A stretch of DNA of 64,000 bases from an uncultured Verrucomicrobiota bacterium (lineage in GTDB: Bacteria > Verrucomicrobiota > Verrucomicrobiia > Palsa-1439), in contig CAZHLM010000001.1 of NCBI GenBank assembly GCA_964533295.1, forward strand, positions 180,633 through 244,632, given 5' to 3'. The position numbers and the translations under genes were made by a program. The notes beneath the pieces are model-generated. The model was not told where the DNA came from, ran no database searches, and saw only the letters and a list, made by a program, of their open reading frames with translations. Positions 4,193 to 52,866 of this stretch are shown here, one piece after another. Each line of letters opens with the position of its first letter. Position 1 is the stretch's first letter.

Positions 4193-4379
4193 ATGTCCGA
4201 GACAACGTCCCTCAGCCGATTACGGCCTGGCCAGACGGGCGTCATCCTGCGCGTCGGCGGACGTGGCCCCGCTCGGGGACCCGGTGGAGTATCGCGTCAA
4301 GGATTACTACCTCTCCTTACGGCAGGAGGACGCCTCCAGGATCGAAGTGAGCACCGAGACCAGAGGTGTCCATGGCTGA
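4193..4379 (+). pseudogene. feoA: feoA, disrupted (internal deletion plus frameshift)
   Basis: Strong RBS AAGGAGG precedes ATG 4193. Frame 1 encodes the FeoA N-terminus MSETTSLSRLRPGQTGVILRVGG. The FeoA C-terminus APLGDPVEYRVKDYYLSLRQEDASRIEVS is encoded in a different frame ending at TGA 4377-4379. The central RRLLELGLxPG segment is missing. Confidence 0.55.
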
Positions 4380-18230: not shown

Positions 18231-20357
18231 TCAGGCCCGCAGCATCCGCAAGCCACTACCGATGACGACGAACTCGCTGATCTCGTGGCCCAGTACGGCG
18301 ATAGGCAGGGAGAAGACGCCGGCGACCGCGCCAACGACTAACGCGCCGATCACCAGGGCCGACAGCCCCAGGTTCTGGTTCACGACCGACTGGTTGCGCT
18401 TCGCCAACCGGAGCGCGTAAGCCAGCTTCTCCAGATCGTCTGCCATCAGGGCCACGTCGGCGGTTTCCAGCGCCACGTCCGTGCCCGCCGCGCCCATCGC
18501 CACGCCCACGGTCGCTTCGGCCAGCGCCGGAGCATCGTTCACCCCGTCGCCCACCATCGCGACGTGGCCATGTCGCTGAGACAGCTCGCGCACTTTCACC
18601 AGTTTGTCTTCCGGCTTCAAGTCGGCATATACCTCGTCAATGCCCAACTCTCGGGCGATGGCCTGTGCGGTGCGTTCGTTGTCGCCGGTGAGCATCACAA
18701 CCTTCTGAACGCCCGCCGCGTGCAGCGCGTCAATCGCTTTGCGCGCATTCGGGCGGATGTTGTCGCGGATGGCGATCAGGCCCCACGGCGCCTGCTCGTC
18801 GCCGACGACCACCACGGTCTTGCCTTCGCCCTGAAGCTGTTGAATGTCGTCCCACGCGCCATGCAAAGAGACGCCCAGGCGGGCGTGAAACAGGTCCGGG
18901 CTGCCGACGTATACGGTATGCCCGTCCAGGCGCGCCGACGCCCCCGCCCCGGTCAGCGACCGGAAGCTGTCCAGTTCCGCTGGAGCAACTGTCTGCTGCT
19001 CAGCATGGCGGACGATAGCCCGCGCCAGGGGATGACCGCTGCGCCGCTCGATGCCAGCCGCTACCGCCAGCACTTCTTGGGCAGAAGTCGTAGGTTGATC
19101 CGGGTCGGTGCGGCAGAGCACCACATCGGTTACTTCCGGTTCGCCTCTCGTCAGCGTGCCGGTCTTATCCAGCGCCACCACCTTTACTTTCGCCAGTTCT
19201 TCGACGTAGACGCCGCCCTTGATGAGCACGCCCTGGCGCGCGCCCGTGCCGAGTGAAGCCACCAGGGTGATGGGGATCGAGATGACCAGGGCACACGGGG
19301 CGGCGGCCACGATGAAGACCGTGGCGCGGGTGATCCAGGTCGTCCAATCGGCGCTGAAGAACAGCGGCGGAATCGCGGCGATGAGAATTCCGATAAGCAG
19401 CACCGCCGGGCTGTAGCGCGCGCCGAAGCGTTCGATGAAGCGCTGGCTCCTGCCTTTCTTCTCCTGGGCCTCTTCGACCATGTGGATGATGCGCGCGATG
19501 GTGTTCTCGGCGAAGGTCTTGGTCGCCCGGACTTCCAGCGCACCCTCGCCGTTGATGCTGCCCGCGAACACTGTGTCGCCGGGCTGCTTCTCCACCGGCA
19601 CGCTCTCGCCCGTGACCGGGGCCTGGTTCATGCTGGAAGCGCCGACGAGCACCACGCCGTCCGTGGCGACGGACTGTCCCGGCTTGACGATGAACACGTC
19701 GCCCACTTCCAGTTCTTCGACCGGGATCTCACGCTCGACCCCATCGCGCCGGACCAGCGCGACCTTCGGCGCCAGGTTCATCAGCGCCTTGATCGCCGCA
19801 CGGGTTTTCTCTTCCGTGTAACCTTCAGCCGCTTCGCTGATGGAATACAGGAAGACCAGCATGGCGCCTTCGGCGGCCTGGCCCATGATCATCGCCACGA
19901 CAGCAGCCACGCTCATAAGCAGCTCAATGCCGATCTCGCGCTCGAAGATCAACTCTTCGATGGCTTCCCGGCCAAAGAAATATCCGCCGATGAGGATGGC
20001 GGCAACATAAATGACGGTTGAGACAATCTCTGGTGCGCCAGCCAGCCCGATGAGCCAGCCGGCGAGCAACAGCACACCCGACGCAGCCGACGTGAGCACC
20101 TTGGGGTTGCGCCAGGGTTTAGGCTGCTCGGCCATCTCCATGCCCTTTTGCGGTGGAAAGCCGAGCGCTTCCAGCTTTTCTTTCAAGGCTTCGGGCCGGG
20201 TCAGCGCCGGATCGTAGGTCAATGTGACTTTGGCGGATTTCGGATAGACCTTTAGCCCAGTCAGCCCCGCGAAGCTTTGCAGGCCACGCTCAATGTTGGC
20301 TGCATCATGTTCGCAATCGAGGTTGGCAACACGAAGTTCGAGTTGTTTGGTGTTCAT
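18231..20357 (-). CDS. P1B-type heavy-metal-translocating ATPase with APC transmembrane motif and degenerate HMA domain
   Basis: [17 protein letters not shown]. The TM6 motif is AAAPCALVISIP. The N-terminal ferredoxin-like domain has a single Cys (NLDCEHD) instead of CxxC. Confidence 0.85.
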   Translation of the reverse strand: MNTKQLELRVANLDCEHDAANIERGLQSFAGLTGLKVYPKSAKVTLTYDPALTRPEALKEKLEALGFPPQKGMEMAEQPKPWRNPKVLTSAASGVLLLAGWLIGLAGAPEIVSTVIYVAAILIGGYFFGREAIEELIFEREIGIELLMSVAAVVAMIMGQAAEGAMLVFLYSISEAAEGYTEEKTRAAIKALMNLAPKVALVRRDGVEREIPVEELEVGDVFIVKPGQSVATDGVVLVGASSMNQAPVTGESVPVEKQPGDTVFAGSINGEGALEVRATKTFAENTIARIIHMVEEAQEKKGRSQRFIERFGARYSPAVLLIGILIAAIPPLFFSADWTTWITRATVFIVAAAPCALVISIPITLVASLGTGARQGVLIKGGVYVEELAKVKVVALDKTGTLTRGEPEVTDVVLCRTDPDQPTTSAQEVLAVAAGIERRSGHPLARAIVRHAEQQTVAPAELDSFRSLTGAGASARLDGHTVYVGSPDLFHARLGVSLHGAWDDIQQLQGEGKTVVVVGDEQAPWGLIAIRDNIRPNARKAIDALHAAGVQKVVMLTGDNERTAQAIARELGIDEVYADLKPEDKLVKVRELSQRHGHVAMVGDGVNDAPALAEATVGVAMGAAGTDVALETADVALMADDLEKLAYALRLAKRNQSVVNQNLGLSALVIGALVVGAVAGVFSLPIAVLGHEISEFVVIGSGLRMLRA

Positions 20358-21945: not shown

Positions 21946-22401
21946 TCACCCCCCCTGTAACCCTCGGAGTGGCCTCAACATCCGATAGAACAGCAAGACT
22001 GCTCCCATCACCAGGGCCACGTCGGCCAGATTAAAGGGGACACCGGCACGCAGGTAATCGACCGGATGGCCGACTCGCCAGCCATCGGCCAGGTTGCCCA
22101 GCAGTCCCCCGAGAAAAACTGCCACTGCGGTACGATAGAGGGCGTCGGGGACAATGTGGCGCTTGTACCACCACAAGAAGGGCACACCGATAATCGTCAA
22201 CACAACAAAAAAGGAGGCGGTATCAAGCATCGCACTGCCAGGGCTGACGGGCCGTGTGATCCCCATCCGTCCGAGAATGAACAGGCGGGACGCGCCTTCC
22301 GGCAGGGCAAATTCCACGACCAGGTCAAAAGCCTGATCTAGCAGCAATAGAGCAAACGAGATCACGGTGAACCGGTGCGGTCGCCAATTCATTGCAGGCA
22401 T
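21946..22401 (-). CDS. lspA: lipoprotein signal peptidase II
   Basis: Conserved LspA boxes including FNLADVALV and VDY. Four TM helices. 151 aa. Confidence 0.8.
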   Translation of the reverse strand: MPAMNWRPHRFTVISFALLLLDQAFDLVVEFALPEGASRLFILGRMGITRPVSPGSAMLDTASFFVVLTIIGVPFLWWYKRHIVPDALYRTAVAVFLGGLLGNLADGWRVGHPVDYLRAGVPFNLADVALVMGAVLLFYRMLRPLRGLQGG

Positions 22402-22913
22402 TATTCGCTGTCTGGCGAAGCTTTCGGAATGCGTCCAGCTATGAGCAGAAGGATCAGACCCAGCACGATGAAACTGTCCGCCAGGTTGAAAGTCGGCCAG
22501 CGGGCCGTGCCGAGGCCCAGGTCGAGGAAATCGGTGACGCGGCCATCCGGCAGGCGGTCGGCGAAGTTGGCAATCGCCCCGCCGAGAATCAGCCCGATGG
22601 GCCAGGCCGCCGCACGAGTCTGTTCGCCGCTGCGGAGGGTGTTCACCAGCCAGACCGCCAGGCCAATGATGATGAGGCCGGTGATGACGAGCGGCCAGAT
22701 GCCGCCGTTGGCAAACAGCCCGAATGCCACGCCGGTGTTATAGCTAAGCGTGAGACGGAACATGTCACCCAATATCGGCACAGGCCGATGAAGGCGAAGC
22801 GTTTGCTCCGCCCAGAGTTTGGACACGCTGTCCGCGACCAACGCCAGCAGCAGTCCCAGTAACACTCCTGAAACGGCTTTGAGTTTTCTATCCATTACCA
22901 TGCCTGCCAACAT
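22401..22913 (-). CDS. lspA: lipoprotein signal peptidase II, second tandem copy
   Basis: NTGVAFG, FNLADSFIV. Overlaps the downstream lspA by 1 nt. Confidence 0.8.
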   Translation of the reverse strand: MLAGMVMDRKLKAVSGVLLGLLLALVADSVSKLWAEQTLRLHRPVPILGDMFRLTLSYNTGVAFGLFANGGIWPLVITGLIIIGLAVWLVNTLRSGEQTRAAAWPIGLILGGAIANFADRLPDGRVTDFLDLGLGTARWPTFNLADSFIVLGLILLLIAGRIPKASPDSE

Positions 22914-24325: not shown

Positions 24326-25498
24326 TCACGGCCCGTCGTGCGGCTCGGTCGCGCCGGGCATGTGCTCCGGGGGATGCTCTGGGGAGTGGACAGACATCTG
24401 CGTGGCTGAAGGCAAAAGCTTATGCTCGGGATCGTGGTCCGGGGTGTGCTCTGGCATTTGCGTTGCCCAGGGTGTGTGCTCGGGGGTGTGGGCTGGCGGC
24501 ATGTACTCCGGTGTATGGGTCGAGATGGGTGTTGCCCAGGGTGTATGCTCCGGCGTATGGCCCGGCATTTGCGTGTGCTCGGCTGTCGGTTGCGCCCTGT
24601 GCTGCGGCGTATGGCTCATCTCGGGTGTCGGCCACGGTGTGTCGTCAGTCGGCGCGTTCCCATGATTGGCCGGGCTGGACGCGCCGCGCGGCGTGGAAGA
24701 GCGCTCCGGCACTGGGACAATCGGCGCGCCCGTATGGGTCATCACCTTCAACCGCAGGGCCAGCAGCCCGCCATTGCCCTGCACGCGGACATGCGCTTGG
24801 ACAATCAGCCCCACAGTCGGTGTGCCTTCGACCACCGTCTGGTCGTTCACCTGCAGGGCCAGTCCGCTCACGATCCACCGCCCTGGCTCCAGCGCTTCCA
24901 GGCGTCCCTCCAACTCAAGGGCCACTTCACGGCCGAGGCCCACAAGCGTGCGAATCTCTTCCTGCCGTTCCGCCGCGTACTGGCGCTCGATAGCGCTGCG
25001 AGCCTGTGGATCAAGTGTCAGACCCAGGCGCACCTCCTCCCAGGTACGCTTGACGCCATACAGGGCGTCGCCCGGCAGGCTATTGGCTGAGGCGGTGATG
25101 GTCAGAACGCTTGTGACGACGATGACTACCATCAAGTTAAGCGCCACGCGCAATACGAGTTTCATTCCTCTGGTCTCCTTTCCGATCAACAGATCGCGCA
25201 GTGCGGTGACAATCCGCACTGAATAACGGGAAAGGAGCTCGGATGATACGGGACGAACCACCCCTGCTTCAGGGGGCTGGTAAACGCGCGCAGCCGCCAG
25301 CAGGCGTTCCCGCCCGGCGATGAGCGCCTCCGGGCTGGAGCGAGGGGCGGGCAAGCGCCGCACCCAGGTAGCCGTGGAAAGGAGCGGGCGCAGTCGTCCC
25401 GCCTCGGCGGGGTGATGGGCCAGGCAGGCCTCGCCGCTTTCCCCGGCGCGCAGCCGGCCCAGGCACTCGTCCAGAACCAGATCGAAGTCAGGGCTCAT
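24326..25498 (-). CDS. membrane-spanning anti-sigma factor with extracytoplasmic domain and C-terminal His/Pro-rich HTPEHTPW repeat tail
   Basis: Overlaps the upstream ECF sigma gene by 11 nt. N-terminal cytoplasmic Cys/His region, one TM (LVLRVALNLMVVIVVTSVLTI), then an about 170-aa domain, then repeats such as HTPEHTPWATP, HTPEYMPPAHTPEHTPWATQMPEHTPDHDPEH. Confidence 0.55.
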   Translation of the reverse strand: MSPDFDLVLDECLGRLRAGESGEACLAHHPAEAGRLRPLLSTATWVRRLPAPRSSPEALIAGRERLLAAARVYQPPEAGVVRPVSSELLSRYSVRIVTALRDLLIGKETRGMKLVLRVALNLMVVIVVTSVLTITASANSLPGDALYGVKRTWEEVRLGLTLDPQARSAIERQYAAERQEEIRTLVGLGREVALELEGRLEALEPGRWIVSGLALQVNDQTVVEGTPTVGLIVQAHVRVQGNGGLLALRLKVMTHTGAPIVPVPERSSTPRGASSPANHGNAPTDDTPWPTPEMSHTPQHRAQPTAEHTQMPGHTPEHTPWATPISTHTPEYMPPAHTPEHTPWATQMPEHTPDHDPEHKLLPSATQMSVHSPEHPPEHMPGATEPHDGP

Positions 25499-26042
25499 AG
25501 CAACCTTCCTTCACGACGGCGCGGTGGAGGGCGGCCAGTGCCCGATGTTGAAGGGAGCGAATGGCGCGCTCATTCTTCCCCATAATGGCGGCGACTTCCT
25601 CGACCTCACGGTCCTCGACGAAGCGGAGCATGATCAATTGACGCTGCTCCTCAGTCAGCCAGCGCAGCGCCTTCGCCAGGCACTCCTGCGCCAGGTGATA
25701 CTCGGCCACAATGGCGGGATGTCCGGTCTCGCCGGCGACCAGGGCTTCTTCTAGCGGCACGGGCGCAACCGCGTTCCGGACGCGGTAGTGGTCCGCGATC
25801 AGATTGCGGGCGATGGTATACAGCCAGGCCAGGATCGGACGGCCACAGTCGGTATAGTCCCCCACCTTCTTGACCATGCGTGCGAATACTTCAGCGGTCA
25901 GGTCCTCCGCTGCGACCTGATCGCCCACGCGGTAATAGACATAGGTGAACACCGATGGTTGATGGCGTTCGTAAAGCGCGACCAGTGCGTCCGGATCACC
26001 GTGCCGGGCGCGCTGAATGAGATCGGATTCGCAGGAATCCAA
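25488..26042 (-). CDS. ECF-type RNA polymerase sigma-70 factor
   Basis: Region 2 (VFTYVYYRVGD...AEDLTAEVF) and region 4 HTH (RQLIMLRFVEDREVEEVAAIMGKNERAIRSLQHRA). Confidence 0.85.
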   Translation of the reverse strand: MDSCESDLIQRARHGDPDALVALYERHQPSVFTYVYYRVGDQVAAEDLTAEVFARMVKKVGDYTDCGRPILAWLYTIARNLIADHYRVRNAVAPVPLEEALVAGETGHPAIVAEYHLAQECLAKALRWLTEEQRQLIMLRFVEDREVEEVAAIMGKNERAIRSLQHRALAALHRAVVKEGCYEP

Positions 26043-26107: not shown

Positions 26108-27592
26108 TCAGGCGCTCCGCCCAGCCGGCAGGCGCAGTGAGAAGCGTGCGCCGCGGGCTGGGCCGGTCGGGTGGGCCGTTGGGCTCTCCACCATTGCCTG
26201 GCCCCCGTGCGCCTCGGCAAGCTGCCGGACAATGGCGAGACCCAGGCCGGAGCCGCCCGTCGCCCGGTTTCGCGACTTCTCAGCCCGCCAGAATCGGTTG
26301 AAGACGTGGGGGAGATCCTCCGCCAGAAGGCCTGGTCCTTCGTCACGGACGGCCAGCTCGACGCCGCCGGGCGCAGGCCGGGCCTCGACAGCGACGCAGG
26401 TGCCCGCCCGCGTGTAGCGCAGCGCGTTGTCCACCAGGTTGCCCAGGGCCTGTGCCAGCCGCTCAGGATCGGCCTGGATTTCGGGTAGTCCCGGCGCTAC
26501 CTCGGTCGCCAGCGTGATGCCCTTCTCGCCGGCGCGCAGACGCAATCGATCTGTCACCTGCTGAACCAGCGCGCCCACATCCACCGGGCGCTTTTCCAAG
26601 CGCAGCTGCCTGGCCTCCGCCAGGGACAGCGTGCGCAGGTCGCCGATCAGCCGGTTGAGGAGCAAGGCTTCCTGGTGGAGGGAGGCCAACTCTTCTGAAC
26701 TGGCCGGCAGCACGCCGTCGAGCATCGCCTCCAGGTTGCTCTGCATCACCGACAGCGGGGTGCGCAGTTCGTGGGCAATGTCGGCGATCATGTTGCGGCG
26801 CTCGACGGCGTAGCCTTGCAGGGTCTCGGCCATCTGGTTGAAGGTGAGGGCGACCTGCCCGACCTCGTCTTTGTCGCCGACCCACGCGCGCCGACTCAGA
26901 TCACCCTGGGTAATGCCACGCGCGGCGGCGGACAGACTGCGCAAAGGTCGGATGATCTGAAAGAAGAGAATAGATCCCATTACCAGCGCGACACCGCCCG
27001 CCGCCAGGCCGGCCCACAATACGGAGCGATTGACTGCGCCAAGAAAATCACCGGCCGGTGTGGCGGGCGCGTCGAACGGCGTGACGATCAACGTGCCGAC
27101 GCGCCGTTGCTCGACCGTGATCGGCATCCCCCGCGCAACGTCGTCGGCCGGCAAACGGGTTCCGACCAGCGCCCCGGCCGTGTCCGCCACCACCAACGCC
27201 TCGGCGTCGGTAAGAATCAACCGGTTGCCGGAGGCGGCCCACATGTTATCGCTCATCATGCCGGGCTCATTCCACCATCCCCCCATGCCTTCCATCATGT
27301 CCATGCCGTCCCCCATCATGTCCCCCATCCAGCCCTCTCCGCCTGTGCCGCCAGCCGCCCACGGATTCTGCAAAACCGTTTCAACGCCACTCCACGAACC
27401 GGAACGCGCGTAGTAGCCGGCCAGCGCCGGGGCCAGCCAGGCCGCCCACTGACGTCCGCTCTGGGTCACGTACAACTCAAACTGCCCGGTCGTCGCCCGG
27501 CTGACCAGGAAGACGACCATGCCGGTACCGACGACGATGACCAGCGCAAACGCCCCCATCAGCTTGATCCACAAACTGCGCGTCATCCTCAC
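26108..27592 (-). CDS. two-component sensor histidine kinase with Met/Gly/Trp-rich periplasmic sensor domain
   Basis: Two TM helices, HAMP, H-box ADIAHELRTPL, N/G1/G2 boxes. The periplasmic loop contains GWMGDMMGDGMDMMEGMGGWWNEPGMMSDNMW. Confidence 0.85.
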   Translation of the reverse strand: MRMTRSLWIKLMGAFALVIVVGTGMVVFLVSRATTGQFELYVTQSGRQWAAWLAPALAGYYARSGSWSGVETVLQNPWAAGGTGGEGWMGDMMGDGMDMMEGMGGWWNEPGMMSDNMWAASGNRLILTDAEALVVADTAGALVGTRLPADDVARGMPITVEQRRVGTLIVTPFDAPATPAGDFLGAVNRSVLWAGLAAGGVALVMGSILFFQIIRPLRSLSAAARGITQGDLSRRAWVGDKDEVGQVALTFNQMAETLQGYAVERRNMIADIAHELRTPLSVMQSNLEAMLDGVLPASSEELASLHQEALLLNRLIGDLRTLSLAEARQLRLEKRPVDVGALVQQVTDRLRLRAGEKGITLATEVAPGLPEIQADPERLAQALGNLVDNALRYTRAGTCVAVEARPAPGGVELAVRDEGPGLLAEDLPHVFNRFWRAEKSRNRATGGSGLGLAIVRQLAEAHGGQAMVESPTAHPTGPARGARFSLRLPAGRSA

Positions 27593-28347
27593 GCCTCCGC
27601 AAACTTGTAGCCGACGCCATACACGGTAAGAAGGTAGCGCGGCTCGCGTGGATCGGGTTCGATCTTCTGCCGCAGATTCTTCACGTGCTGGTCAATGGTG
27701 CGCTCATAGCCTTCATACGTTGGCCCCTGCGCTTGTTCGAGCAGTTGGGCACGCGTATAGACTCGTCCCGGATAGCGCACGAAGGCCACCAGCAGATCGA
27801 ACTCGTTGGGGGTCAACTCGACCGGTTTGCCGGAAACGGTGACGGTGTGCCGTTGAAGGTCTAGGCGGATATCAGAGGCTTCGATGAACTCTGGGGGCGC
27901 CCCGGGTTGTTCGGCGCGGCGCAGAACGGCGCGCACCCGGGCCACGACTTCGCGCGGCGAGAACGGCTTGGGGATGTAGTCGTCGGCGCCCAGTTCGAGT
28001 CCAATGAGCCGGTCCACTTCTTCGCTCCGGGCGGTGAGCATGATGATGGGCACGTTGGAGTCGCGCCGAAGTGTCCGGCACACATCCAGACCATCCTGCT
28101 CACCCGGCAGGTTCAGGTCGAGCAATACCAGCGCCGGCTTCTCATGGCGGAAGGCGGCCAGCCCTTGTGCGCCATCGGTGGCCCACACGACGCTATATCC
28201 GGCCTGCTCCAGATAGAGCCGCACGGTACGCATGATCTTCGCTTCATCTTCGATGATCAGAATCTTCTTCGCCACGGCCGTATAACGCAACGCAGGGGCG
28301 TCGCACGCTGTGCGAACGCCCCACGTCTGAATGATCGGATCAGGCAA
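27589..28347 (-). CDS. OmpR-family response regulator (alternative GTG start at 28275)
   Basis: Receiver domain KILIIEDE...LLDLNLPG...PIIMLTA, winged-helix C-terminus. 4-nt overlap with the kinase gene. Confidence 0.85.
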   Translation of the reverse strand: MPDPIIQTWGVRTACDAPALRYTAVAKKILIIEDEAKIMRTVRLYLEQAGYSVVWATDGAQGLAAFRHEKPALVLLDLNLPGEQDGLDVCRTLRRDSNVPIIMLTARSEEVDRLIGLELGADDYIPKPFSPREVVARVRAVLRRAEQPGAPPEFIEASDIRLDLQRHTVTVSGKPVELTPNEFDLLVAFVRYPGRVYTRAQLLEQAQGPTYEGYERTIDQHVKNLRQKIEPDPREPRYLLTVYGVGYKFAEA

Positions 28348-28762
28348 GCTGCGCGCCGCAGTGCGGACAGTTGCGCCAATCCGTCTGGGCTGGCTGGCCG
28401 CAATTGGGACAGGCGCGTGACGGTCCGGCGGCGGTGAGCGGGACAGTGTTGCGCGTCAGAGCCTGCACCCGCCACACGCCGCCGGCGACGAGCACCACGA
28501 GCAGGCCCAGTGGGAACAGCCCCATGAGGATCATGCCGATCCAGCCAACGGGGTTGATGCCCATCATGCCAGGGCCGCCCCAGCCGCCCAGACCTGCTCC
28601 GGGCACCAGGGTCATCCCCAGGCCATTCCAGCCGCAGCCATTATAGCCCCAGCCGCCTGCTCGTCCCCAGAGCAGGGGGACCAGCAGATTCGCCCCGAGC
28701 GCGAGCGCCAGCAGGGTTATCCCACCAATCACCAGCCCACGCGTCCAGTTCATGTTTTTCAT
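28340..28762 (-). CDS. small membrane protein with Gly/Trp/Met-rich loop (GWGYNGCGWNG...GGPGMMGINPVGW) and C-terminal zinc ribbon (CPNCG...CPHCG)
   Basis: 140 aa. TM1, low-complexity G/W/M segment, TM2, then CxxC-x10-CxxC. Confidence 0.6.
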   Translation of the reverse strand: MKNMNWTRGLVIGGITLLALALGANLLVPLLWGRAGGWGYNGCGWNGLGMTLVPGAGLGGWGGPGMMGINPVGWIGMILMGLFPLGLLVVLVAGGVWRVQALTRNTVPLTAAGPSRACPNCGQPAQTDWRNCPHCGAQLA

Positions 28763-28794: not shown

Positions 28795-29757
28795 CTACGG
28801 TATAAGAATTAGCTGATCTATGTAGGGGCCGTATTGTTTGTGATACCAGACCTCGCCCGTTAGGCCGCTGACGCTGACCATCCCGATGATCTGATCGGCC
28901 TGCCAGACATCGAAAGTGTAGTAGCCGTAGAAGGTCAGCGGGTCGCCAGCCGTCGCGCCGGGCACATTGAGGTCGAGCGAAGCCTGGGCGATTTGTCTCG
29001 CCTGCTCAGCCGTAACGGTCATCTCCCTGGCTGCTCCCTGACCATAACGAGAGTTCCAACTGACGTTGGGGCCCGGCTCGGGCCAGACCTGTCCGGTGGC
29101 CGGGTCAACCATCAGGGCAAATGCGTGGCGGCCGGTGCTCTGCTCGCGAACGCGTGCATAGTATCCATCGCCAAACCGGATCACTTCGGCCAGCGACAGA
29201 TCGGGGTTGTTGAACGCGACCAGATAAGCCCGCACGGCTTGCGCGGCGGCGTCCAGAGAAGCGATGGGCTGAGCCGTGCTGGGAAGCGTCTGAGAGTGGT
29301 CACGATAGCTATTGTTCCCTCTATATCCGCCCATCCCCCAACCATCGTTCATCATGCCGCCCCGCATCCCCCAGTTCCCATTCATCGCACCGGGCATACT
29401 ATAACCGGGCGCAGCGTTGTACTGTGGGGACATGCCAGGCCTCATCTCCCAGTCGTCCCAACCCCTGTTTCCCATGCTGCCGGTCCAGCCGCCGTAGCCA
29501 CCCGGCCATCCGTCAGGTTGCGGCGGCGTCGCAGAGCTGGGGGCAATCGGGCCATTGTCCGCAGCCAGCGGCAACAGTGTGGTGGTTTGAGATGGCAAAT
29601 CGGCGCTGGTCAACGGTGAGGCTGTGGACAACGGCTCGACCACAATAGCCGCCCGCCTCGCTGGAGCTAACGCCATCCCCGACGCTAACCCGGCAGACGC
29701 CAGCACGACGCCGCCAACGACAAAGCCCAACACTCTGAAGATAGTGGTGCGGTTCAT
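28795..29757 (-). CDS. secreted/anchored protein with Met/Gly/Trp-rich region followed by two PepSY-like domains
   Basis: N-terminal hydrophobic anchor. Region GWPGGYGGWTGSMGNRGWDDWEMRPGMSP...GMRGGMMNDGWGMGGY. The C-terminal about 170 aa has PepSY-like alpha/beta pattern. Confidence 0.5.
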   Translation of the reverse strand: MNRTTIFRVLGFVVGGVVLASAGLASGMALAPARRAAIVVEPLSTASPLTSADLPSQTTTLLPLAADNGPIAPSSATPPQPDGWPGGYGGWTGSMGNRGWDDWEMRPGMSPQYNAAPGYSMPGAMNGNWGMRGGMMNDGWGMGGYRGNNSYRDHSQTLPSTAQPIASLDAAAQAVRAYLVAFNNPDLSLAEVIRFGDGYYARVREQSTGRHAFALMVDPATGQVWPEPGPNVSWNSRYGQGAAREMTVTAEQARQIAQASLDLNVPGATAGDPLTFYGYYTFDVWQADQIIGMVSVSGLTGEVWYHKQYGPYIDQLILIP

Positions 29758-29772: not shown

Positions 29773-30411
29773 TCAGTTGTTGGGCGCGCCGGCTGCCACC
29801 CAGTTCACGAGTGTCTGAATCTGCGCCTGGGTCAGCGACGGGCCGCCATAGGGCATATAGCCGCTGGCGACATACTGAATCAGGCGACTGCCAACCGGGT
29901 CACCCGGAAGGATGACCGGCCCATTCGTACTGCCACGCAGCACGCTGTCGTAGTCGGTCAGGTACAGGCCGCGCGCGCCGCCGTGACAGGCCACACACCG
30001 CGCCTCGAAGATCGGTTGAATGTCTTTCTGGAATGAAACCGATGTGGTAGTCGGTGCGGGAACTGTTGACGTGATGGCGGTCGAACGGCCCCAGTACCCA
30101 TGCATCGGCATCATGCCCATTCGCATCGAGCCCATCCCCCAACCGCCCCAATCTTCACGCCAGCTGCCATTGCCACAACAGCCGTTCATCATCCCCGGCC
30201 CGCCCCAGCGCATCCCTGATCTCGACCCCCAACCCCACGGATCACCCCCTGTGTTGCCGGGATTGGGGTTGATATACGCGCCGGGTGACATGGGGGTTGG
30301 GACTGCGACCGATCCACGCGATTGGGCCAGGGCCACCCCGGCAAAAAAGAACGCGCCAGTCAGCACGAGGGCCAACGCTGCCACAAGACCAACGGAAAGT
30401 ATTTTGCGCAT
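29773..30411 (-). CDS. secreted mono-heme c-type cytochrome with N-terminal Met/Gly/Trp/Cys-rich region
   Basis: Signal peptide. GPGMMNGCCGNGSWREDWGGWGMGSMRMGMMPMHGYWG. Heme site CVACHG plus distal MPYGG Met ligand. Confidence 0.65.
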   Translation of the reverse strand: MRKILSVGLVAALALVLTGAFFFAGVALAQSRGSVAVPTPMSPGAYINPNPGNTGGDPWGWGSRSGMRWGGPGMMNGCCGNGSWREDWGGWGMGSMRMGMMPMHGYWGRSTAITSTVPAPTTTSVSFQKDIQPIFEARCVACHGGARGLYLTDYDSVLRGSTNGPVILPGDPVGSRLIQYVASGYMPYGGPSLTQAQIQTLVNWVAAGAPNN

Positions 30412-30655
30412 GATCTACCTCCAGGGCTGTTCTCGAGTTTCTGGCGGCAGTCTAGCGGGAGATTGTGTAGAAGCTGTGAGACTGATTTGAGATTGGCGTA
30501 TACCGGACCCTTGACACCACTCAAGCACCAACCATCATTCCATCCACTAATATGAGTATCTTGGTCGGCCTTGTCCGCTCTAGCCGGTGACACTTATTCT
30601 GTTTTCAGGGTGACATTATCCACATGATGAGCAGGGTGCCTCTGCCTATCATCGC

Positions 30656-30669
30656 TAATGAGAATGACT
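30656..30669. promoter_or_regulatory. Fur-box-like sequence TAATGAGAATGACT upstream of fur (putative autoregulation)
   Basis: 11/14 match to a TAATGATAATCATT half-consensus. Lies 33-46 nt upstream of the probable fur start, in the divergent region shared with the Met-rich operon. Confidence 0.25.
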
Positions 30670-30701
30670 TGCAACAGCAACAACCCAACGGACGGTCTCC
30701 C

Positions 30702-31151
30702 ATGACCACTCACGCCGAAACGCTTGCCACCCTACGCGCCACCGGTCACCGCATCACGCCCCAGCGCCAGATCGTGCTGGAGGTGGTCGAAACCAGCGGC
30801 GAGCACCTGGACGCCGAGGCCATCTATCAGCGGGCGCGGCAGAACGACCCCAGCATCAGCCTGGCTACGGTCTATCGCACCCTCACGGTCCTCAAAGACA
30901 TGGGCTTGATCGAGCAGCGTTATCTGGCCCGAGATCATGCCCGCGAGCACTACGAACCCGTGGGCGCGCCCGAACACTATCACTTCACCTGCCTGGGCTG
31001 CCGCAAGGTCGTTGAATTCCAAAGCCCGCGCGTGAAACAGATGCGCGCTGAATTGCAGCAGGAATTGGGGTTAGAAGTCTCACACGCCTGTATCTGCCTG
31101 GAAGGATACTGTCAGACCTGCGCGGCGAAACGTCAAGCCGCAAAGGAATAG
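30702..31151 (+). CDS. Fur-family transcriptional regulator
   Basis: Internal ATG 30702 (MTTHAETLATL...). DNA-binding helix TPQRQIVLEVV, HxH/CxxC metal sites (HYHFTCLGC...CICLEGYCQTC). Confidence 0.8.
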   Translation: MTTHAETLATLRATGHRITPQRQIVLEVVETSGEHLDAEAIYQRARQNDPSISLATVYRTLTVLKDMGLIEQRYLARDHAREHYEPVGAPEHYHFTCLGCRKVVEFQSPRVKQMRAELQQELGLEVSHACICLEGYCQTCAAKRQAAKE

Positions 31152-31160
31152 GGGATCCTG

Positions 31161-32450
31161 ATGGAAGCCTTTGTCATCACCTTGCGCGAGGGAATGGAGG
31201 CCGCCCTCGTGGTCGGCCTCATCCTCACTTACCTCAGCCGTACCGGGCGGACCGGGTTGCGCCGCTGGGTGTATGCCGGGCTGGGCCTGGCGGCCGCCGC
31301 CAGCCTCCTGGGCGCGGCCGGTTTCAACCTGGCCGGGTTTGACCCGGAGAACGAAGTCCTGGAAGGCACGTTGCTGGCCGTCGCCGCCGTGCTCGTGTTC
31401 AGCCTGGTCGTGTGGATGTGGCGCGCTGCGCGGGGACTCAAACAGCACATCGAGGGGCGGCTGGACTCGCTCACGGCGCCAACCGGCCAGACCAGACGGC
31501 AAGGCTGGGGCCTGCTGGCCTTTGTCTTCTTCATGGTCTTCCGCGAGGGCGTGGAGATGATCCTCTTTCTGGCCGCGCTCTCGCTGGCAGAGACGCCTGA
31601 CCTGGTGGGCCTGATCGGCGGGCTGACCGGGTTGGGGCTGGCCGGGTTGTTTGGCGTCATGTTCGTGAAGGGCAGCCTGCGGATCAACCTGCGCCGCTTC
31701 TTCGCCGTTACCGGTTTTGTGCTGATGGTGCTCGTCGTGCGGCTGGCCGCCGGAAGCCTGCACGAATTCTTCGAGGTCGGGCTGCTGCCGAGCACGCCCG
31801 CGCTCCTGGCCGTGATCGGCTTCATCGTCAAAGACAGCACCTCCACGCTGATCCTCATCGCATTGGTGGCCTTGCCCGTGCTCACCATGCTGCCCGAGAT
31901 GCGCCTGCGCCCGGCGGCGCTGGCCGCGCTCCCGGATGAAACTGGACCGGAGCGGCGCAAGCGCCTGGCCACGCTCTATCGCTCGCGGAACTGGCAGGCG
32001 GCGCTCGTGAGCGTGACGCTGGCGACGGTGCTGCCGCTGGGCACGGCCGCCTATGCGATGGGCCGGGCCGCCTACCGGCCCGATCCTCAGGCCGTAGCGG
32101 TACGCGATGACGGGATGGTGCATATCCCCGTGGAGGCCCTCATCCCCGGCCAGCTCAACCTGTATTTCTATCAAGGCACCGAGGTGGATGTGACCTTCAT
32201 GGTCATCAAGCGCGACGAGGACGACATCGCGGTGGCGCTCAACGCCTGCGGCATCTGCCCCCCGCGCGGTTACCATCAGGAGGGTGGGACGCTGATCTGC
32301 GACAACTGCAATGCCCCGATCAATATGGAAACTGTGGGCATGCCGGGTGGGTGCAACCCGGTCCCACTGACGGCTTCTCTGGCCGGGGGCGAGGTGCTGA
32401 TTGCCGCCGCCGACCTCGAGGGCGCGCAGACCGTCTTCGCGGCGAGGTGA
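31161..32450 (+). CDS. FTR1/EfeU-family high-affinity iron permease fused to a C-terminal DUF2318-like Cys-rich domain
   Basis: Two REGxE motifs (TLREGMEAALVV, FREGVEMILFLAAL) in a 7-TM core. C-terminal about 160 aa with CGICPPRGY...CDNCNAPI. Confidence 0.75.
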   Translation: MEAFVITLREGMEAALVVGLILTYLSRTGRTGLRRWVYAGLGLAAAASLLGAAGFNLAGFDPENEVLEGTLLAVAAVLVFSLVVWMWRAARGLKQHIEGRLDSLTAPTGQTRRQGWGLLAFVFFMVFREGVEMILFLAALSLAETPDLVGLIGGLTGLGLAGLFGVMFVKGSLRINLRRFFAVTGFVLMVLVVRLAAGSLHEFFEVGLLPSTPALLAVIGFIVKDSTSTLILIALVALPVLTMLPEMRLRPAALAALPDETGPERRKRLATLYRSRNWQAALVSVTLATVLPLGTAAYAMGRAAYRPDPQAVAVRDDGMVHIPVEALIPGQLNLYFYQGTEVDVTFMVIKRDEDDIAVALNACGICPPRGYHQEGGTLICDNCNAPINMETVGMPGGCNPVPLTASLAGGEVLIAAADLEGAQTVFAAR

Positions 32451-32457
32451 GCGTCCT

Positions 32458-33792
32458 ATGCTGCTGCGCCTTCTCAAAGACACACTGCGCCGCCGAACCC
32501 GCCGCCTGCTTGTCGCCATGCTGGCCGTGACCACCGGCGCCTCGCTGGCCGCTGCGCTGCTGGGCATCTCGCTCGACATCACCGGCCAGATGGGCCGCGA
32601 ACTGCGCGCGTACGGGGCGAACATCCTCGCCTCGCCCGCCAATGGCGATCTGAGACTAGAGATCGGTGGGGTGCCGCTGCGGGTGTCGGGCGAGCGAGTG
32701 CTGCTGGACGAAAACGAATTGGTGAAGTTGAAGACCATCTTCTGGCGGCACAACATCGTGGGCTTTGCGCCGTACCTCACTGCCCTCGCCCAGGTGAACG
32801 GTCAGACCGTGGCCGTCACCGGGACGTGGTTCGACAAGCCCCTCACTCTGCCCAAAGGCGCCGCCATCCGCACTGGCTTTGCCAAGACAGAGGGCGCGTC
32901 TGACGAGGCCACCTTCCGCACGGGCGTCAAGACCATCGCGCCGTGGTGGCAGGTGCAGGGCGATTGGTTGCAGGACGACGATCAGGGATCGGCGATGGTT
33001 GGGGCGGGGCTGGCCCGGCGGATGGGCTGGCAGGTCGGAGACCAGATCGCGCTCACGGTCGAGGACCGGGCCGCCCGCTTCCGGATCATCGGCCTCGTCA
33101 GCACCGGTGGCTACGAGGAAGATCAGGTCTTCGTCGCCCTCCCGGCGGCGCAGGCGCTCCTGAACCTCTCGCAGGGCGCGGATCGCGTGCAGATCAGCGC
33201 GCTGGTCGAGCCGGACGCAAATCTGCGCCCTGACCTGCGCGGCCTCGATCCCGCCGAGATGACGCCCGAACAGTACGCGACGTGGTACTGCTCGCCGATC
33301 ATGGGCGCGGTGCTCACACAAATCAAGGAAGTTCTGCCAGACGCCGATGTGCGCCCGATCCGCCAGATCAGCCAGGCCGAGGTAGATTTCCTCGGCAAGA
33401 TCGGCCTGCTGATGACGCTGCTCGCGATCGCGGCGCTGAGCGGCTCGGCGCTGGCGGTGATGACGGTGATGACGGCTTCGGTGATGGAGCGCCGGGCCGA
33501 GATCGGGCTGATGAAAGCCCTCGGCGCGGACGACGGCCACATCGCCCTCATCTTCCTCAGCGAAGCGGCGCTGATCGGGTTGGCCGGCGGCGCGGCGGGC
33601 TACCTGCTCGGCCTGGGGCTGGCGCAGGGGCTGGTCCGCACGGTGTTTTCGGTCGGCGGGGACGCGCAAAGCGCGCCCGTCGTCCTGCCGATCACGCTGC
33701 TCCTGGCGCTGGCCGTGGCCTTATTGGGCAGCGCTCTGCCGGTGCGCCAAGCCGTGCGCTTCGATCCGGTGTTGTTGTTGCGAGGGAAATGA
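32458..33792 (+). CDS. ABC transporter permease, FtsX/MacB-like (first of two)
   Basis: ATG 32458 (MLLRLLKDTL...). N-terminal TM, large periplasmic domain, C-terminal 3-TM FtsX bundle. Confidence 0.75.
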   Translation: MLLRLLKDTLRRRTRRLLVAMLAVTTGASLAAALLGISLDITGQMGRELRAYGANILASPANGDLRLEIGGVPLRVSGERVLLDENELVKLKTIFWRHNIVGFAPYLTALAQVNGQTVAVTGTWFDKPLTLPKGAAIRTGFAKTEGASDEATFRTGVKTIAPWWQVQGDWLQDDDQGSAMVGAGLARRMGWQVGDQIALTVEDRAARFRIIGLVSTGGYEEDQVFVALPAAQALLNLSQGADRVQISALVEPDANLRPDLRGLDPAEMTPEQYATWYCSPIMGAVLTQIKEVLPDADVRPIRQISQAEVDFLGKIGLLMTLLAIAALSGSALAVMTVMTASVMERRAEIGLMKALGADDGHIALIFLSEAALIGLAGGAAGYLLGLGLAQGLVRTVFSVGGDAQSAPVVLPITLLLALAVALLGSALPVRQAVRFDPVLLLRGK

Positions 33793-34946
33793 GTATGCAC
33801 TTTGCATGGCGAATTCTTTCCGGCTCGCTTCGGCATCAACGCGCGCGCCTGAGCATCGCGGCGCTGGCGATGGCGCTGGGCAGTGCGCTCGTCTCAGGGC
33901 TGCTGAACCTGTCCGGCGACATCGGCGGGCAGGTCGGGCGCGAGCTGCGCGCCTACGGAGCGAATCTCGTCATTCGCCCACGCGGGCCGTCGTTGCGCGT
34001 CGGCAGCGGTGAGCTGGACTTTGGGGCGGTTTCAGCCCCGGCGACGATCCGCGAATCGGATCTCGAATCGGTCAAACGAGTCGAAGGCGTGGTCGGCCTG
34101 GTTCCATACCTGCACGCGGTGGTGGAGGTCGAGGGGCGTCCGGCCGTCCTTGCGGGTGTTGACCTGATGGCCGCTCGCGCGCTCAACGCGTGGTGGCAGG
34201 TGCAGGGGCGGTGGCCTGAAGTAAAGGATGAGGTTCTCATCGGCGGGCGAGCCGCGGCCGCGATGGGTCTCGAGCCGGGCGGAGTGATCACGGTCGGCTA
34301 TGGACGTGAAGCGCGAACGATGCGCCTCGTGGGTCTGCTCGAAACGGGCGGCGCGGAGGACGATCAATTCGTCGCCGATCTTCCCATGGTCCAATCGCTC
34401 ACCGATCAGTCTGGACAGGTTGGGCTGGTCATGGTCAGCGCACTGACCTCCGGCCGGCCGCTGGAGGCCGTGGCACAGGAAATCCAGACCCTCCTGCCCG
34501 ACGCGGAAGTGCGGACCCTGGCGCAGTTCGCCCAGGCCGAGGCGACGGTGCTGGATAAGGTGCGCCTGCTCATCGGTCTGGTAGCGGCGTTGGTGCTGAT
34601 CGCCGGCGCGCTGACCGTGGCCGGGACGCTCAACACGCTGGTGATCGAACGGCGAACGGAGATTGGCTTGATGAAGGCGCTGGGCGCCGCCGACCGGCGG
34701 GTGGCCGGCTTGTTCCTGGCTGAAGCGTTGTGCGTCGGCGCGATCGGAGGAGCCGTGGGATATCTGGCCGGCGTGGGTCTGGCCCTCCTCATCGGGCAAC
34801 AGGTCTTCGAGGCGATCATCATGCCCACGGCCTGGGCATTTCCGGGCACGCTGCTCGTGGGGCTGATCGTCACGCTGGTGGCCGGGCTTCTCCCGGTGAA
34901 GCGCGCATTGCAGATTGATCCCGTCAGGACATTGCGAGGCGAATAA
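33789..34946 (+). CDS. ABC transporter permease, FtsX/MacB-like (second)
   Basis: ATGA overlap with the upstream gene at 33789-33792. Same architecture: MSMHFAWRILSGSLRHQRARLSIAAL... Annotated ORF 33282..34946 is an out-of-context N-terminal extension. Confidence 0.75.
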   Translation: MSMHFAWRILSGSLRHQRARLSIAALAMALGSALVSGLLNLSGDIGGQVGRELRAYGANLVIRPRGPSLRVGSGELDFGAVSAPATIRESDLESVKRVEGVVGLVPYLHAVVEVEGRPAVLAGVDLMAARALNAWWQVQGRWPEVKDEVLIGGRAAAAMGLEPGGVITVGYGREARTMRLVGLLETGGAEDDQFVADLPMVQSLTDQSGQVGLVMVSALTSGRPLEAVAQEIQTLLPDAEVRTLAQFAQAEATVLDKVRLLIGLVAALVLIAGALTVAGTLNTLVIERRTEIGLMKALGAADRRVAGLFLAEALCVGAIGGAVGYLAGVGLALLIGQQVFEAIIMPTAWAFPGTLLVGLIVTLVAGLLPVKRALQIDPVRTLRGE

Positions 34947-35704
34947 TGACTGATAGCGTTGTGCAGGCAATCAAACTTGCGCGGGTCTACGGCGAGGTGA
35001 AGGCCCTGGATGGGGTGGACCTGGAAGTGGCCCGCGGCGAGTGGGTCAGCGTGATGGGGCCATCCGGTTCGGGCAAGACGACCCTGTTGAACATCCTGGG
35101 CGGCCTCGACCGGCCGACTGCCGGGCAGTTGCGCGTGGACGGGGTAGAGGTCACGACGCTGCTGTCCAAGGCGCTCACCCACTTCCGGCGCGAGATGATC
35201 GGGTTAGTTTTCCAGCAGTTCTACCTGATCCCGTACCTCACGGCGCTGGAGAACGTGATGCTGGCACAATACTTTCATAGCCTGGCCGACGAGGCCGAGG
35301 CGCGCGCCGCGCTCGAGGCGGTGGGGCTGGGCCAGCGTCTGCATCATTTGCCCGCGCAACTTTCCGGTGGGGAGCAGCAGCGCGTGTGCATTGCCCGTGC
35401 GCTCATCAACCAGCCCAAGATTATCCTGGCCGATGAGCCGACCGGCAATCTCGACGCGGCTAACGAGGAGATCGTCTTGGACATTTTTCGCCGCTTGCAT
35501 GCGCAGGGGCATACGCTGGTCATCGTCACCCACGACGCCCGCGTGGGTCGCCTGGCGGATCGGCTGATCACGCTCGAACATGGGCGGGTCGTGCGCGCCG
35601 AATCGAATGGGCACGACCGGCCCAAGACGGCGCAACTGATGCAGCCTGTGCCTCTCGGCGCATCGGGCAACAGGCCCGGCGTGGAAGGCAACAGCAAGGG
35701 CTGA
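34946..35704 (+). CDS. ABC transporter ATP-binding protein (MacB/LolD-like)
   Basis: Walker A GPSGSGKTT, signature LSGGEQQR, Walker B ILADEPTGNLD, H-loop. Confidence 0.9.
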   Translation: MTDSVVQAIKLARVYGEVKALDGVDLEVARGEWVSVMGPSGSGKTTLLNILGGLDRPTAGQLRVDGVEVTTLLSKALTHFRREMIGLVFQQFYLIPYLTALENVMLAQYFHSLADEAEARAALEAVGLGQRLHHLPAQLSGGEQQRVCIARALINQPKIILADEPTGNLDAANEEIVLDIFRRLHAQGHTLVIVTHDARVGRLADRLITLEHGRVVRAESNGHDRPKTAQLMQPVPLGASGNRPGVEGNSKG

Positions 35705-41255: not shown

Positions 41256-42254
41256 TCAAAACACGACAACGCGTGTGCCTTCAGGAGCCCGCACGTAATC
41301 CTCTCCAGGTGGGACGACGGGCAGCGTCCAGCGATACAGCCACTTGGCGTCTGCCGGCGTCAGGTTGATGCAACCGCGGCTGCGCGGCGTGCCGTAATCG
41401 TTGTGCCAGTACGTGCCGTGCAGCGCCACGCCCGTCCAGTAGATATAGGACACCCACGGCACACCCGGCAAATCAAAGCCGTTGCCATCGCTTGCCGCCA
41501 TGTGGCGCGACGGCCGCTTCTGCTCTACTTTGAATTCTCCGCTGGGCGTTGCCGCTCCCCGGCGCCCGGTCGAGACGCGAGCAGTCAAGGCGATCGCGCC
41601 ATTCTCATACGCGGTCAGGCTCTGCTGTTTCAAATCCACTTCGATGCGCTTGTCGGTCACGTTTGATGAGATCGGCGTCAGCTCGTCGTCATCCACACGG
41701 CGCAGGCTCTCAGCCAACACAAAGTAGTAGACCTTGTACCGGTCATCCAGCACGCGATACCACACGCGGCCCTTCTTATCCGTGACCGATTGGTCTACCC
41801 AGTGCGTGCTGGCGTAGTAAAAGCGATAGACCTTCTTCGGGTTGCCATCGTCATTGCGCCAGGCCTCGGTGAAGGGCACTGTCACTTCAGCCAGAAACCC
41901 TTCTTTGGGTACGTCCACAATTGGCTGGTTCAGGTCATTGCGTACCGGCTGGATCAGCGACGAATGTACCCAGCCCTCGTCCGTGCGCCACCAGACCGGG
42001 TTCTGCGATTGGCCGGGGTCGCCACCCTTCTTCTCTTCATAGATGTTGACAAGGGTGTCGGCCCAATACACCTTCGATTGCGCCTTGCCCGTGAACGCCG
42101 GCCGGTCGTAGGCCCGCAGCGAGGAGTTCGTGACGCGGCCCAGGGCGATAGGCGCCTCGGCGGGCTGCGCCCGCTGTGGCAAGTCCAATACGAGGCCCAG
42201 TGCAGCCATGGCTGTAACTTTGAGAAAATCACGGCGAGGGATAAGGCGCGCCAT
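41256..42254 (-). CDS. L,D-transpeptidase (YkuD family) with twin-arginine signal peptide
   Basis: Tat motif RRDFLKVTAMAALG. Catalytic HGTYWHND...SRGCINL (His/Cys). Confidence 0.8.
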   Translation of the reverse strand: MARLIPRRDFLKVTAMAALGLVLDLPQRAQPAEAPIALGRVTNSSLRAYDRPAFTGKAQSKVYWADTLVNIYEEKKGGDPGQSQNPVWWRTDEGWVHSSLIQPVRNDLNQPIVDVPKEGFLAEVTVPFTEAWRNDDGNPKKVYRFYYASTHWVDQSVTDKKGRVWYRVLDDRYKVYYFVLAESLRRVDDDELTPISSNVTDKRIEVDLKQQSLTAYENGAIALTARVSTGRRGAATPSGEFKVEQKRPSRHMAASDGNGFDLPGVPWVSYIYWTGVALHGTYWHNDYGTPRSRGCINLTPADAKWLYRWTLPVVPPGEDYVRAPEGTRVVVF

Positions 42255-44556: not shown

Positions 44557-44568
44557 CGAACGTCACCT

Positions 44569-45684: not shown

Positions 45685-45693
45685 CCGGGCCTC

Positions 45694-46638: not shown

Positions 46639-46690
46639 AGAAGTTATTCCTTCTCCTCGTAGAGAGTCAGTAACGATGAGGCGATGGCCC

Positions 46691-46996
46691 TCAGTGGTTT
46701 CCGAACCAAGCGAACGCCTCAATAAACAGCCACTGAAAGGCGTGCCAGAGCCGTACCAGTGCCAGGTACACGTGCGTGAGTGAATGCAGCGATGGTTGCC
46801 ACAAAAGGAGGGACAATCCCACCATGACAGTGGCAAACGAGCAAAGTGCATAGTCAAGCCAGTTCAGGCGGAAACGGAGTGGGGCGGTGGCGCGAACGCG
46901 CGCCATCGTTCCCGGCAGCAGCGTAGCCGGCGCAGGTGGGATGGGATAAGTTCGCAATGCGTCGTCCACGGCCTGGAAATCTCGTTGTTGGGTCAT
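46691..46996 (-). CDS. hypothetical small membrane protein
   Basis: 101 aa with two hydrophobic helices, between hflC and the CDF::HflK gene. No family recognised. Confidence 0.3.
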   Translation of the reverse strand: MTQQRDFQAVDDALRTYPIPPAPATLLPGTMARVRATAPLRFRLNWLDYALCSFATVMVGLSLLLWQPSLHSLTHVYLALVRLWHAFQWLFIEAFAWFGNH

Positions 46997-47029
46997 CGGG
47001 ATGCCTTCAGAACCGGCTGTGTGCGTTCT

Positions 47030-48601: not shown

Positions 48602-48775
48602 GCCATGGATTTCTCCGCCTGAAGGGACTCGACAAATATCTGGCCTCAGCCCGCACGCCGATTGGGCCAAGGCCAGTCGCTATGAAGCCGGACACCCGAG
48701 CATTCGGCGCAGCAGACTATAGCCGCGCCGGTTCAGAAAGTCCTGTACAAGTTCTGAAATTTGGATGAGAGCAGA

Positions 48776-52152: not shown

Positions 52153-52174
52153 CGGGTTCTTCCACCTTGCGGCC

Positions 52175-52861: not shown

Positions 52862-52866
52862 GTCTC

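Follow-up and report, generated by a model that had tools for sequence, protein, structure and literature searches.

At positions 29773-30411 on the minus strand of a 64,000-nucleotide stretch of contig CAZHLM010000001.1 (positions 180,633 to 244,632 of that contig; hereafter the window), an open reading frame (ORF) of 212 amino acids (aa) encodes a predicted exported c-type cytochrome whose heme domain is preceded by a Met/Trp/Gly-rich segment, the tail. The gene opens a tightly packed operon that continues with genes for a PepSY-like protein, a zinc-ribbon protein with two transmembrane (TM) segments, an OmpR-type response regulator and a histidine kinase, and this operon is conserved in Anaerolineae-type Chloroflexota. 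The cistrons that follow the cytochrome gene are:

28795..29757, minus strand: second gene, 320 aa, with a signal peptide, a Gly/Met/Trp segment at aa 82-149 (29311-29514) found in a Met/Gly scan, and a C-terminal part resembling two PepSY domains.
28340..28762, minus strand: two-TM protein with a predicted extracytoplasmic GWG/GGPGMMG loop at aa 33-74 (28541-28666; topology from sequence) and a predicted cytoplasmic zinc ribbon (Pfam Zn_ribbon_3, E=1.2e-8).
27589..28347, minus strand: OmpR/PhoB-family response regulator (Pfam Response_reg and Trans_reg_C).
26108..27592, minus strand: histidine kinase with the Pfam-supported order TM, sensor, TM, HAMP, HisKA, HATPase and a Met-rich sensor loop at aa 81-118 (27239-27352).

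The first two intergenic gaps measure 15 nt and then 32 nt, and the regulator ORF as called shares 8 nt with the zinc-ribbon ORF and 4 nt with the kinase ORF; the true start of the regulator probably lies near VAKKILIIEDE, later than called. The PepSY assignment of the second gene comes by way of its homologue in locus L005 and is borderline (E=6e-5, 23.7 bits vs a cutoff of 24), and the 320-aa protein of the window itself has no Pfam match. A literature search found no paper on this fusion or operon, and nothing relevant on Met-rich cytochromes or copper systems in Chloroflexi/Anaerolineae.

All of the strings from which the earlier note had characterized the cytochrome (CVACHG, MPYGG, GPGMMNGCCGNGSW and MRMGMMPMHGYWG) are present in the 212-aa translation. 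The analysis supports its reading of the product as an exported monoheme c-type cytochrome, His/Met-ligated and joined to a Met-rich segment; the operon context had escaped it. The parts delimited along the gene are:

30417..30421, minus strand: GGAGG ribosome-binding site 5 nt before the ATG, read directly from the sequence.
30325..30411, minus strand: predicted signal peptide, aa 1-29 (MRK, hydrophobic core, ALA/QS), from the translation, the AlphaFold2 helix at aa 2-24 and A-x-A-Q in homologues.
30055..30324, minus strand: disordered Gly/Met/Trp-rich segment, aa 30-119 (GPGMM, GWG, and Cys78-Cys79 at 30175-30180), from the predicted local distance difference test (pLDDT), family composition and shuffles.
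29776..30054, minus strand: monoheme cytochrome c domain, aa 120-212.
29983-29997, minus strand: heme motif C139-V-A-C-H143.
29854-29856, minus strand: distal Met186.

We infer export because the protein begins with an MRK n-region, a hydrophobic helix at aa 2-24 and an ALA-QS site. The AlphaFold2 model agrees with this division, giving a helix like that of a signal peptide at aa 2-24, pLDDT below 50 for aa 28-112, and a largely confident four-helix domain at about aa 121-212. Among 49 homologues, a pattern search found A-x-A-Q in 20 and a lipobox in 4, to which P0043 (LLGSAC) was added by eye. A cytochrome c maturation gene (WWD motif) was not found within the window.

Pfam places aa 130-205 in cytochrome c families, with PSCyt1 above threshold (28.5 bits, cutoff 22) and Cytochrome_CBB3 borderline (27.0 bits vs a cutoff of 27). 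A search of 5.8 billion proteins yielded 62 relatives, mostly of 190-260 aa, unnamed and metagenomic, the few named ones being Anaerolineae or Chloroflexi proteins from metagenome-assembled genomes; the same fusion, which the earlier note had read in this single protein, thereby recurs in about 60 homologues from Chloroflexota metagenomes. In the alignment of 49 homologues C139, C142, H143, M186 and P187 are invariant, so that the heme site and the distal Met are genuine family features. The domain has a class I fold of the FoxE/PSCyt1 type, and its predicted axial ligands are His143 and Met186: the family profile matched both heme domains of FoxE (PDB 5mab, E=1.8e-10), the M-P of each aligning with the M-P of the family motif GYMP (M186-P187), and FoxE is the closest solved relative by sequence and by fold. 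FoxE, however, is a diheme Fe(II) oxidoreductase encoded in the foxEYZ operon of Rhodobacter ferrooxidans SW2 and lacks a Met/Trp/Gly-rich tail, whereas the window protein has a tail and one CxxCH, has no foxY or foxZ neighbors, and is encoded beside the PepSY-like, zinc-ribbon, regulator and kinase genes in a two-component operon of Chloroflexota; being monoheme and in the wrong operon, it was rejected as a FoxE. The monoheme PccH of Geobacter sulfurreducens (PDB 4rlr) showed low similarity, confined to the N-terminal helix and the heme motif, and its context is unrelated.

The family of the heme domain is very large, with 14,464 cluster representatives matching at E <= 0.001, many of them multi-repeat proteins, and the N-terminal region was also aligned in only about 35 of the best 150 heme-domain matches. 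In more distant paralogues from Chloroflexota, a lipobox and a Pro/Ala/Thr linker precede the same heme domain, and there is no adjacent two-component system; the position is thus that of a tether, replaced by a Met/Trp/Gly module in the present subfamily. The operon thus gives a context to one slice of the large and functionally blank PSCyt1 cytochrome family.

We compared the tail, taken as the region between signal peptide and heme domain, across the same 49 homologues. Its length ranges from 74 to 138 aa and its composition is rich in Gly (22.3%), Pro (10.5%), Met (8.1%) and Trp (6.2%) and nearly devoid of Lys (0.2%), with at least 4 Met and at least 2 Trp in every homologue. Pairwise identity is only 30% in the tail vs 64% in the heme domain. 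Relative to composition-preserving shuffles, MM (z=15), GWG (z=12.8) and PG(x)MM (z=17) were over-represented, showing that the tail is not random low complexity. The earlier note had allowed that the region might turn out to be a disordered, poorly conserved linker, and this describes half of what was found: disorder is predicted and position drifts, but composition and short motifs are strongly conserved. The vicinal Cys pair to which it had drawn attention (aa 78-79) is present in the window protein, but occurs in only 11 of the 49 homologues and is therefore not a family feature; five homologues have no Cys in the tail at all.

A scan of all six-frame ORFs of the window for at least 5 Met and at least 7 Gly per 30 aa returned only three, namely the cytochrome, the next gene (320 aa) and the operon's histidine kinase. 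Because all three belong to the operon, the Met-rich tail is not an effect of genome-wide composition. Across the sequences compared the tail behaves as a module: it stands alone in L008 and L185, is fused to PepSY-like domains in the window, L005, L152 and L186, to a helical domain in L103, L129, L135 and L209, and elsewhere to cytochrome c. Adjacent genes hold paralogous copies of the signal peptide plus tail, the copy beside the cytochrome gene matching that of the cytochrome at 64/123 positions in L005 and 47/110 in L008. A guess that the helical first-gene proteins of sister cassettes (those with related regulators, described below) might be CpxP/ZraP-like (LTXXQ) produced only a sub-threshold Pfam match to DUF2680 (E=3.5e-4), and we make no such claim. 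Met-rich sequence and heme c also meet, apparently by convergence, in a second cytochrome c of L010 (9058-9567, Pfam Cytochrom_C), unrelated to the first, in which GGGGGMMGSMQMMGGMM immediately precedes the CVTCH heme motif.

The grammar of the tail extends to its partners in the operon, since MM, GWG and PGMM are shared by all the predicted extracytoplasmic segments, that of the kinase sensor included. The external sensor of the window kinase has an inserted loop, GGTGGEGWMGDMMGDGMDMMEGMGGWWNEPGMMSDNMW, with 10 Met in 30 aa, and equivalent Met-rich kinase loops were seen in L001, L005, L008, L010, L185 and L186; wherever a locus was read, kinase and zinc-ribbon loops alike proved rich in Met. 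Genes for cytochrome, zinc-ribbon protein, regulator and kinase follow one another in this order in L001, L003, L005, L008, L014, L016/L017, L185 and L210 as well. In L012 the cytochrome, regulator and kinase are retained and no zinc-ribbon match was detected, and L010 has a SHOCT protein and the second cytochrome c where the zinc-ribbon protein would stand. Sister cassettes, with regulators at 53-66% identity, likewise begin with a gene for a secreted Gly/Met-rich protein, either alone or with a PepSY-like or helical domain, and the Met content of the kinase loop tracks this first gene, at 13, 10 and 10 Met vs 2 where there is no such gene.

A further conserved element lies just upstream of the cytochrome gene:

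30448..30492, minus strand: predicted operon promoter, with three direct repeats 11 bp apart (TCAAA / TCACA / ACACAAT) followed by a TAGACT -10-like hexamer.

The same 45-bp architecture, repeats and then TAnnCT, was found ahead of the leading cassette gene at 9 independent loci. The window has a single match to the pattern, where 0.08 chance matches would be expected, and each of 18 cassette loci likewise has exactly one, in every case upstream and co-oriented; an exact match was absent in L007, L016/L017 and L096/L097. OmpR/PhoB-type regulators bind direct repeats at helical spacing, which is why we suppose autoregulation, with 30448..30492 as the presumed, putative site for the operon's own OmpR-type regulator. 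Searches of the window and of the sequence flanking the cassette loci, by pattern and by position weight matrix, gave no second site, and the local regulon appears to be the operon itself. In a metagenome scan (loci L098-L216), a TTCACA-type triple direct-repeat promoter proved widespread next to OmpR-type systems, low-GC organisms included, and the scan was useful only for finding sister cassettes. Among its other products, this promoter type precedes a secreted 107-aa protein with 19 Met at 261-584 of L216, as well as DUF6803-type membrane proteins in L194 and L216, the Pfam match coming from the protein at 734-1240 of L216; the DUF6803-type protein of L194 (4535-5089) ends in a His/Met-rich tail.

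Metal genes surround the cassette in every case. Its neighbors in the window include P1B ATPases, ArsR/SmtB regulators, tandem LspA genes and an ECF sigma/anti-sigma pair, and the cytochrome gene diverges from the adjoining fur and FTR1/FtrD-like fusion, which belong to a plus-strand series at 30624-35704 that comprises fur, an FTR1 permease fused to an FtrD-like iron-sulfur domain, two MacB/FtsX permeases and an ABC ATPase. FTR1-type permeases normally need a ferroxidase partner; neither a P19 nor a cupredoxin partner for the fusion was seen at 30624-35704. In L001, L014 and L015 the cassette gene lies directly downstream of DtxR, FeoB and FeoA genes. Other flanks (L005, L008, L010, L012 and L096) hold CDF transporters, P1B ATPases or multicopper oxidase: CDF with ZIP in L005, ArsR with a P1B ATPase in L008 and L096, and in L010 a two-domain multicopper oxidase, ZIP, cupredoxin and DUF3105, a set also found downstream in L001.

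We favor, tentatively and at somewhat less than an even chance, an interpretation by analogy in which the cytochrome is a regulator-controlled effector or co-sensor whose Met-rich tail captures a thiophilic metal, Cu(I) or Ag(I), and whose heme takes an electron. The kinase would sense an envelope signal via its Met-rich loop, the phosphorylated regulator would activate its own operon from the repeats, and the induced Met-rich proteins would constitute both response and feedback input, following the logic of ZraP-ZraSR, CpxP-CpxRA or SilE-SilRS. Thioether and indole chemistry is the reason to suppose that the signal would most likely be a thiophilic metal, Cu(I) or Ag(I), which the thioether- and indole-rich tail would capture transiently and hold next to the heme; the heme would then take the electron (Cu(I) to Cu(II)) and pass it to the respiratory chain. 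Electron removal is suggested because the heme adjoins the tail, by analogy with the CueO Met-rich domain, and the cytochrome may be viewed as a heme-based counterpart of that domain together with the T1 copper site.

The regulatory half of this interpretation has its models in ZraP-ZraSR, CpxP-CpxRA, SilE-SilRS and PcoE, where a secreted, partly disordered ligand-binding protein is encoded beside its two-component system and is under its control, serving as output and feedback. The conserved operon promoter supports the analogy. Unlike these proteins, the window protein lacks the LTXXQ fold and HxxM or MxxH motifs and has a heme domain attached, and its kinase and regulator belong to none of the ZraS, CpxA and SilS families. 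For the tail itself, we take the Gly/Met-rich insert of Aquifex McoA to be a comparator. A parallel to the chemistry is CueO, whose Met-rich domain recruits Cu(I) for oxidation, although the role of disordered Met-rich regions is still debated even there (PMC11494321). The likeness consists of a flexible Met-rich segment beside a one-electron acceptor in an exported protein. The acceptor differs, being T1 copper plus a trinuclear cluster in CueO and a predicted heme c here, so that the window protein itself cannot reduce O2; the motif grammar differs too, MM/GWG/PGMM vs the MxxM or HxxM of a CueO-type Met-rich domain. CopJ of cop clusters was dropped as a cytochrome c comparator, Rubrivivax CopJ being described only with a CxxC motif (PMC4600104).

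The metal role proposed in the earlier note, with Cu(I) to Cu(II) detoxification among its examples, retains some footing: the nearest solved relative, FoxE, oxidizes a metal ion, the neighborhood is one of metal homeostasis, and copper proteins are nearby in some loci and about 22 kb off in the window. Several results weigh against that role, and against the capture of Cu(I) or Ag(I) beside a heme in particular. Classical Cu(I) spacings are not enriched in the tail relative to shuffles (MxM z=1.1, MxxM z=2.0, MxxxM z=-0.7) and His is scarce (1.6%); this weakens the note's Cu(I)-type Met-rich site, the enriched motifs being MM, GWG and PGMM instead, and led us to reject identity as a classical Met-motif copper protein. 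Kinase and regulator fall short of the NCBIfam heavy-metal-sensor cutoffs (TIGR01386/TIGR01387), at 170.4 vs 292.55 bits and 156.2 vs 279.2 bits, which rejects a CusRS-type identity (CusRS, CopRS, SilRS); all NCBIfam matches of the regulator are below equivalog cutoffs, and the best sub-threshold ones for kinase and regulator are BaeS and MtrA. The three P1B ATPases of the window (HMA-type, all minus strand, at 18231-20357, 15736-17850 and 60128-62470) have as transmembrane motifs APC with HEISE, CSC, and SPC with HEGST; none has CPC, and the Cu(I) signature of CPC with YN and MxxSS is in none of the three, so that motif inspection ruled out the expectation of CopA-like neighbors. CSC-type P1B ATPases are a poorly characterized subgroup. 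Flanking genes indicate Fe and Zn as much as Cu, and the TTCACA-type promoter, because it is widespread beside OmpR-type systems, is neither cassette-specific nor informative about the signal. No cytochrome was detected in some cassettes (L186, and L152, whose locus is truncated), which makes the heme dispensable to the module. Thioether ligation stabilizes Cu(I), and oxidizing it in such a site therefore needs a high-potential heme. Finally, there is no named orthologue.

A more ambitious version is distinctly unlikely, namely that the cytochrome is a heme-based cuprous/argentous oxidase and co-sensor, with the MM/GWG/PGMM tails forming a soft-metal layer on the Chloroflexota surface that would link kinase loop, zinc-ribbon protein and secreted effectors, and with electrons from tail-bound Cu(I) draining to the respiratory chain. 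Were it true, copper detoxification would be independent of the O2-reducing chemistry of multicopper oxidases, and sensor and effectors would recognize their ligand via the same low-complexity grammar. To our knowledge, the only enzymes for which extracytoplasmic cuprous oxidation has been described are multicopper oxidases, and these require O2. Low-oxygen sludge and sediments are the habitat of many Anaerolineae, which are difficult to bring into culture. A tail that binds Cu(I)/Ag(I) and a heme that takes the electron would amount to a second, heme-based route of cuprous oxidation. Whatever the metal, the operon is a clear natural example of one low-complexity grammar recurring in a kinase sensor loop, in an accessory protein of the membrane and in several secreted proteins whose C-terminal domain can be exchanged (cytochrome c, PepSY-like, helical or none), and it makes a testable model for disordered Met-rich regions in signaling; this sharing between sensor and effectors is of more interest than any single protein.

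Oxidant sensing and scavenging offers an unlikely alternative to soft-metal capture. HOCl or H2O2 would oxidize the Met residues of tail and kinase loop to sulfoxide, acting as sink and signal in the manner of MrpX and HprS, and the heme would be a peroxidase-like or electron-relay partner. For HprS of E. coli, Met oxidation is the signal. MrpX of Azospira suillum, a hypochlorite scavenger induced by a dedicated envelope stress regulator, provides the precedent and resembles the tail proteins in being small, secreted and Met-rich (PMC4436054). It works with the YedY/MsrP reductase under SigF/NrsF, whereas the window operon has a two-component system and no reductase was seen in it. The occurrence of Met as MM doublets in place of the metal-type MxxM spacing fits this alternative, as does the ECF sigma and DUF5667 anti-sigma pair that follows the cassette in the window and is nearby in L005, L008/L009 and L096. 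It is opposed by the lack of any methionine sulfoxide reductase (MsrP/YedY, MsrA, MsrB) among the Pfam-annotated genes of the cassette loci or the scanned ORFs of the window, and by flanks made up of metal transporters and metalloregulators; the equally conserved enrichment of Trp and Gly is left unexplained.

It is rather unlikely that the protein is an ordinary membrane-proximal respiratory cytochrome c on a flexible tether, its tail a lineage-specific low-complexity spacer and its two-component system one that senses redox or oxygen, like ResDE, and adjusts supply. The Chloroflexota paralogues in which a lipobox and a Pro/Ala/Thr linker lead to the same heme domain are classic tethered cytochromes, the predicted disorder and poor positional conservation of the tail suit a spacer, and the promoter type is generic, with a repeat unit that we take to resemble PhoP/ResD-type boxes. 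A mere spacer, on the other hand, would not be expected to share its Met/Gly composition with only two other ORFs in 64 kb, both in the same operon, to repeat its grammar in the loops of the kinase and the zinc-ribbon protein, to be found, under the same promoter, both by itself as a secreted protein and attached to non-redox domains, or to have short motifs so strongly non-random. The last alternative, a FoxE-like Fe(II) oxidase for iron homeostasis that would oxidize Fe(II) outside the membrane for detoxification or for Fe(III) supply to the neighboring FTR1-type permease, draws on the kinship with FoxE, on the divergent fur and FTR1/FtrD-like fusion, for which no P19 or cupredoxin partner was seen, and on the DtxR-FeoB-FeoA loci, but is very unlikely given that iron genes are not conserved neighbors (see the CDF, P1B ATPase and multicopper oxidase flanks above), that Met, Trp and Gly make a poor ligand set for Fe, that FoxE is diheme and of a foxEYZ operon while the window protein is monoheme, and that functions in so large a heme-domain family are mostly unknown.

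Several other features of the window were noted. The ECF sigma factor with its DUF5667/DUF5666 anti-sigma-like protein lies at 24326-26042 (minus strand), after the kinase gene as it does in L005, and such a pair is within a few kb of the cassette in L008/L009 and L096. The copper cluster about 22 kb from the cassette consists of a PCuAC-like lipoprotein, DUF305, DUF3105 and a CopC-CopD-YtkA-cytochrome c fusion. The fusion (53591-56413, minus strand) is a 940-aa protein of CopC, CopD, YtkA-like and cytochrome c parts with CVTCH at about aa 712, and is the second fusion of heme c with a copper module in the window; the cluster also takes in 51718-53517 (minus strand), and upstream of the fusion are DUF3105, DUF305 and a lipoprotein with H/M motifs resembling the PCuAC copper chaperone. 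A minus-strand block at 42229-48670 contains a CDF transporter fused to Band 7/SPFH, two more Band 7 proteins and a large peptidyl-prolyl isomerase, and the same block adjoins the cassette in L005. FeoB is split at 4366-6710 (plus strand) into two overlapping ORFs, one with the G-domain and one with the membrane part, and two signal peptidase II genes stand in tandem at 21946-22913 (minus strand), inside the metal island.

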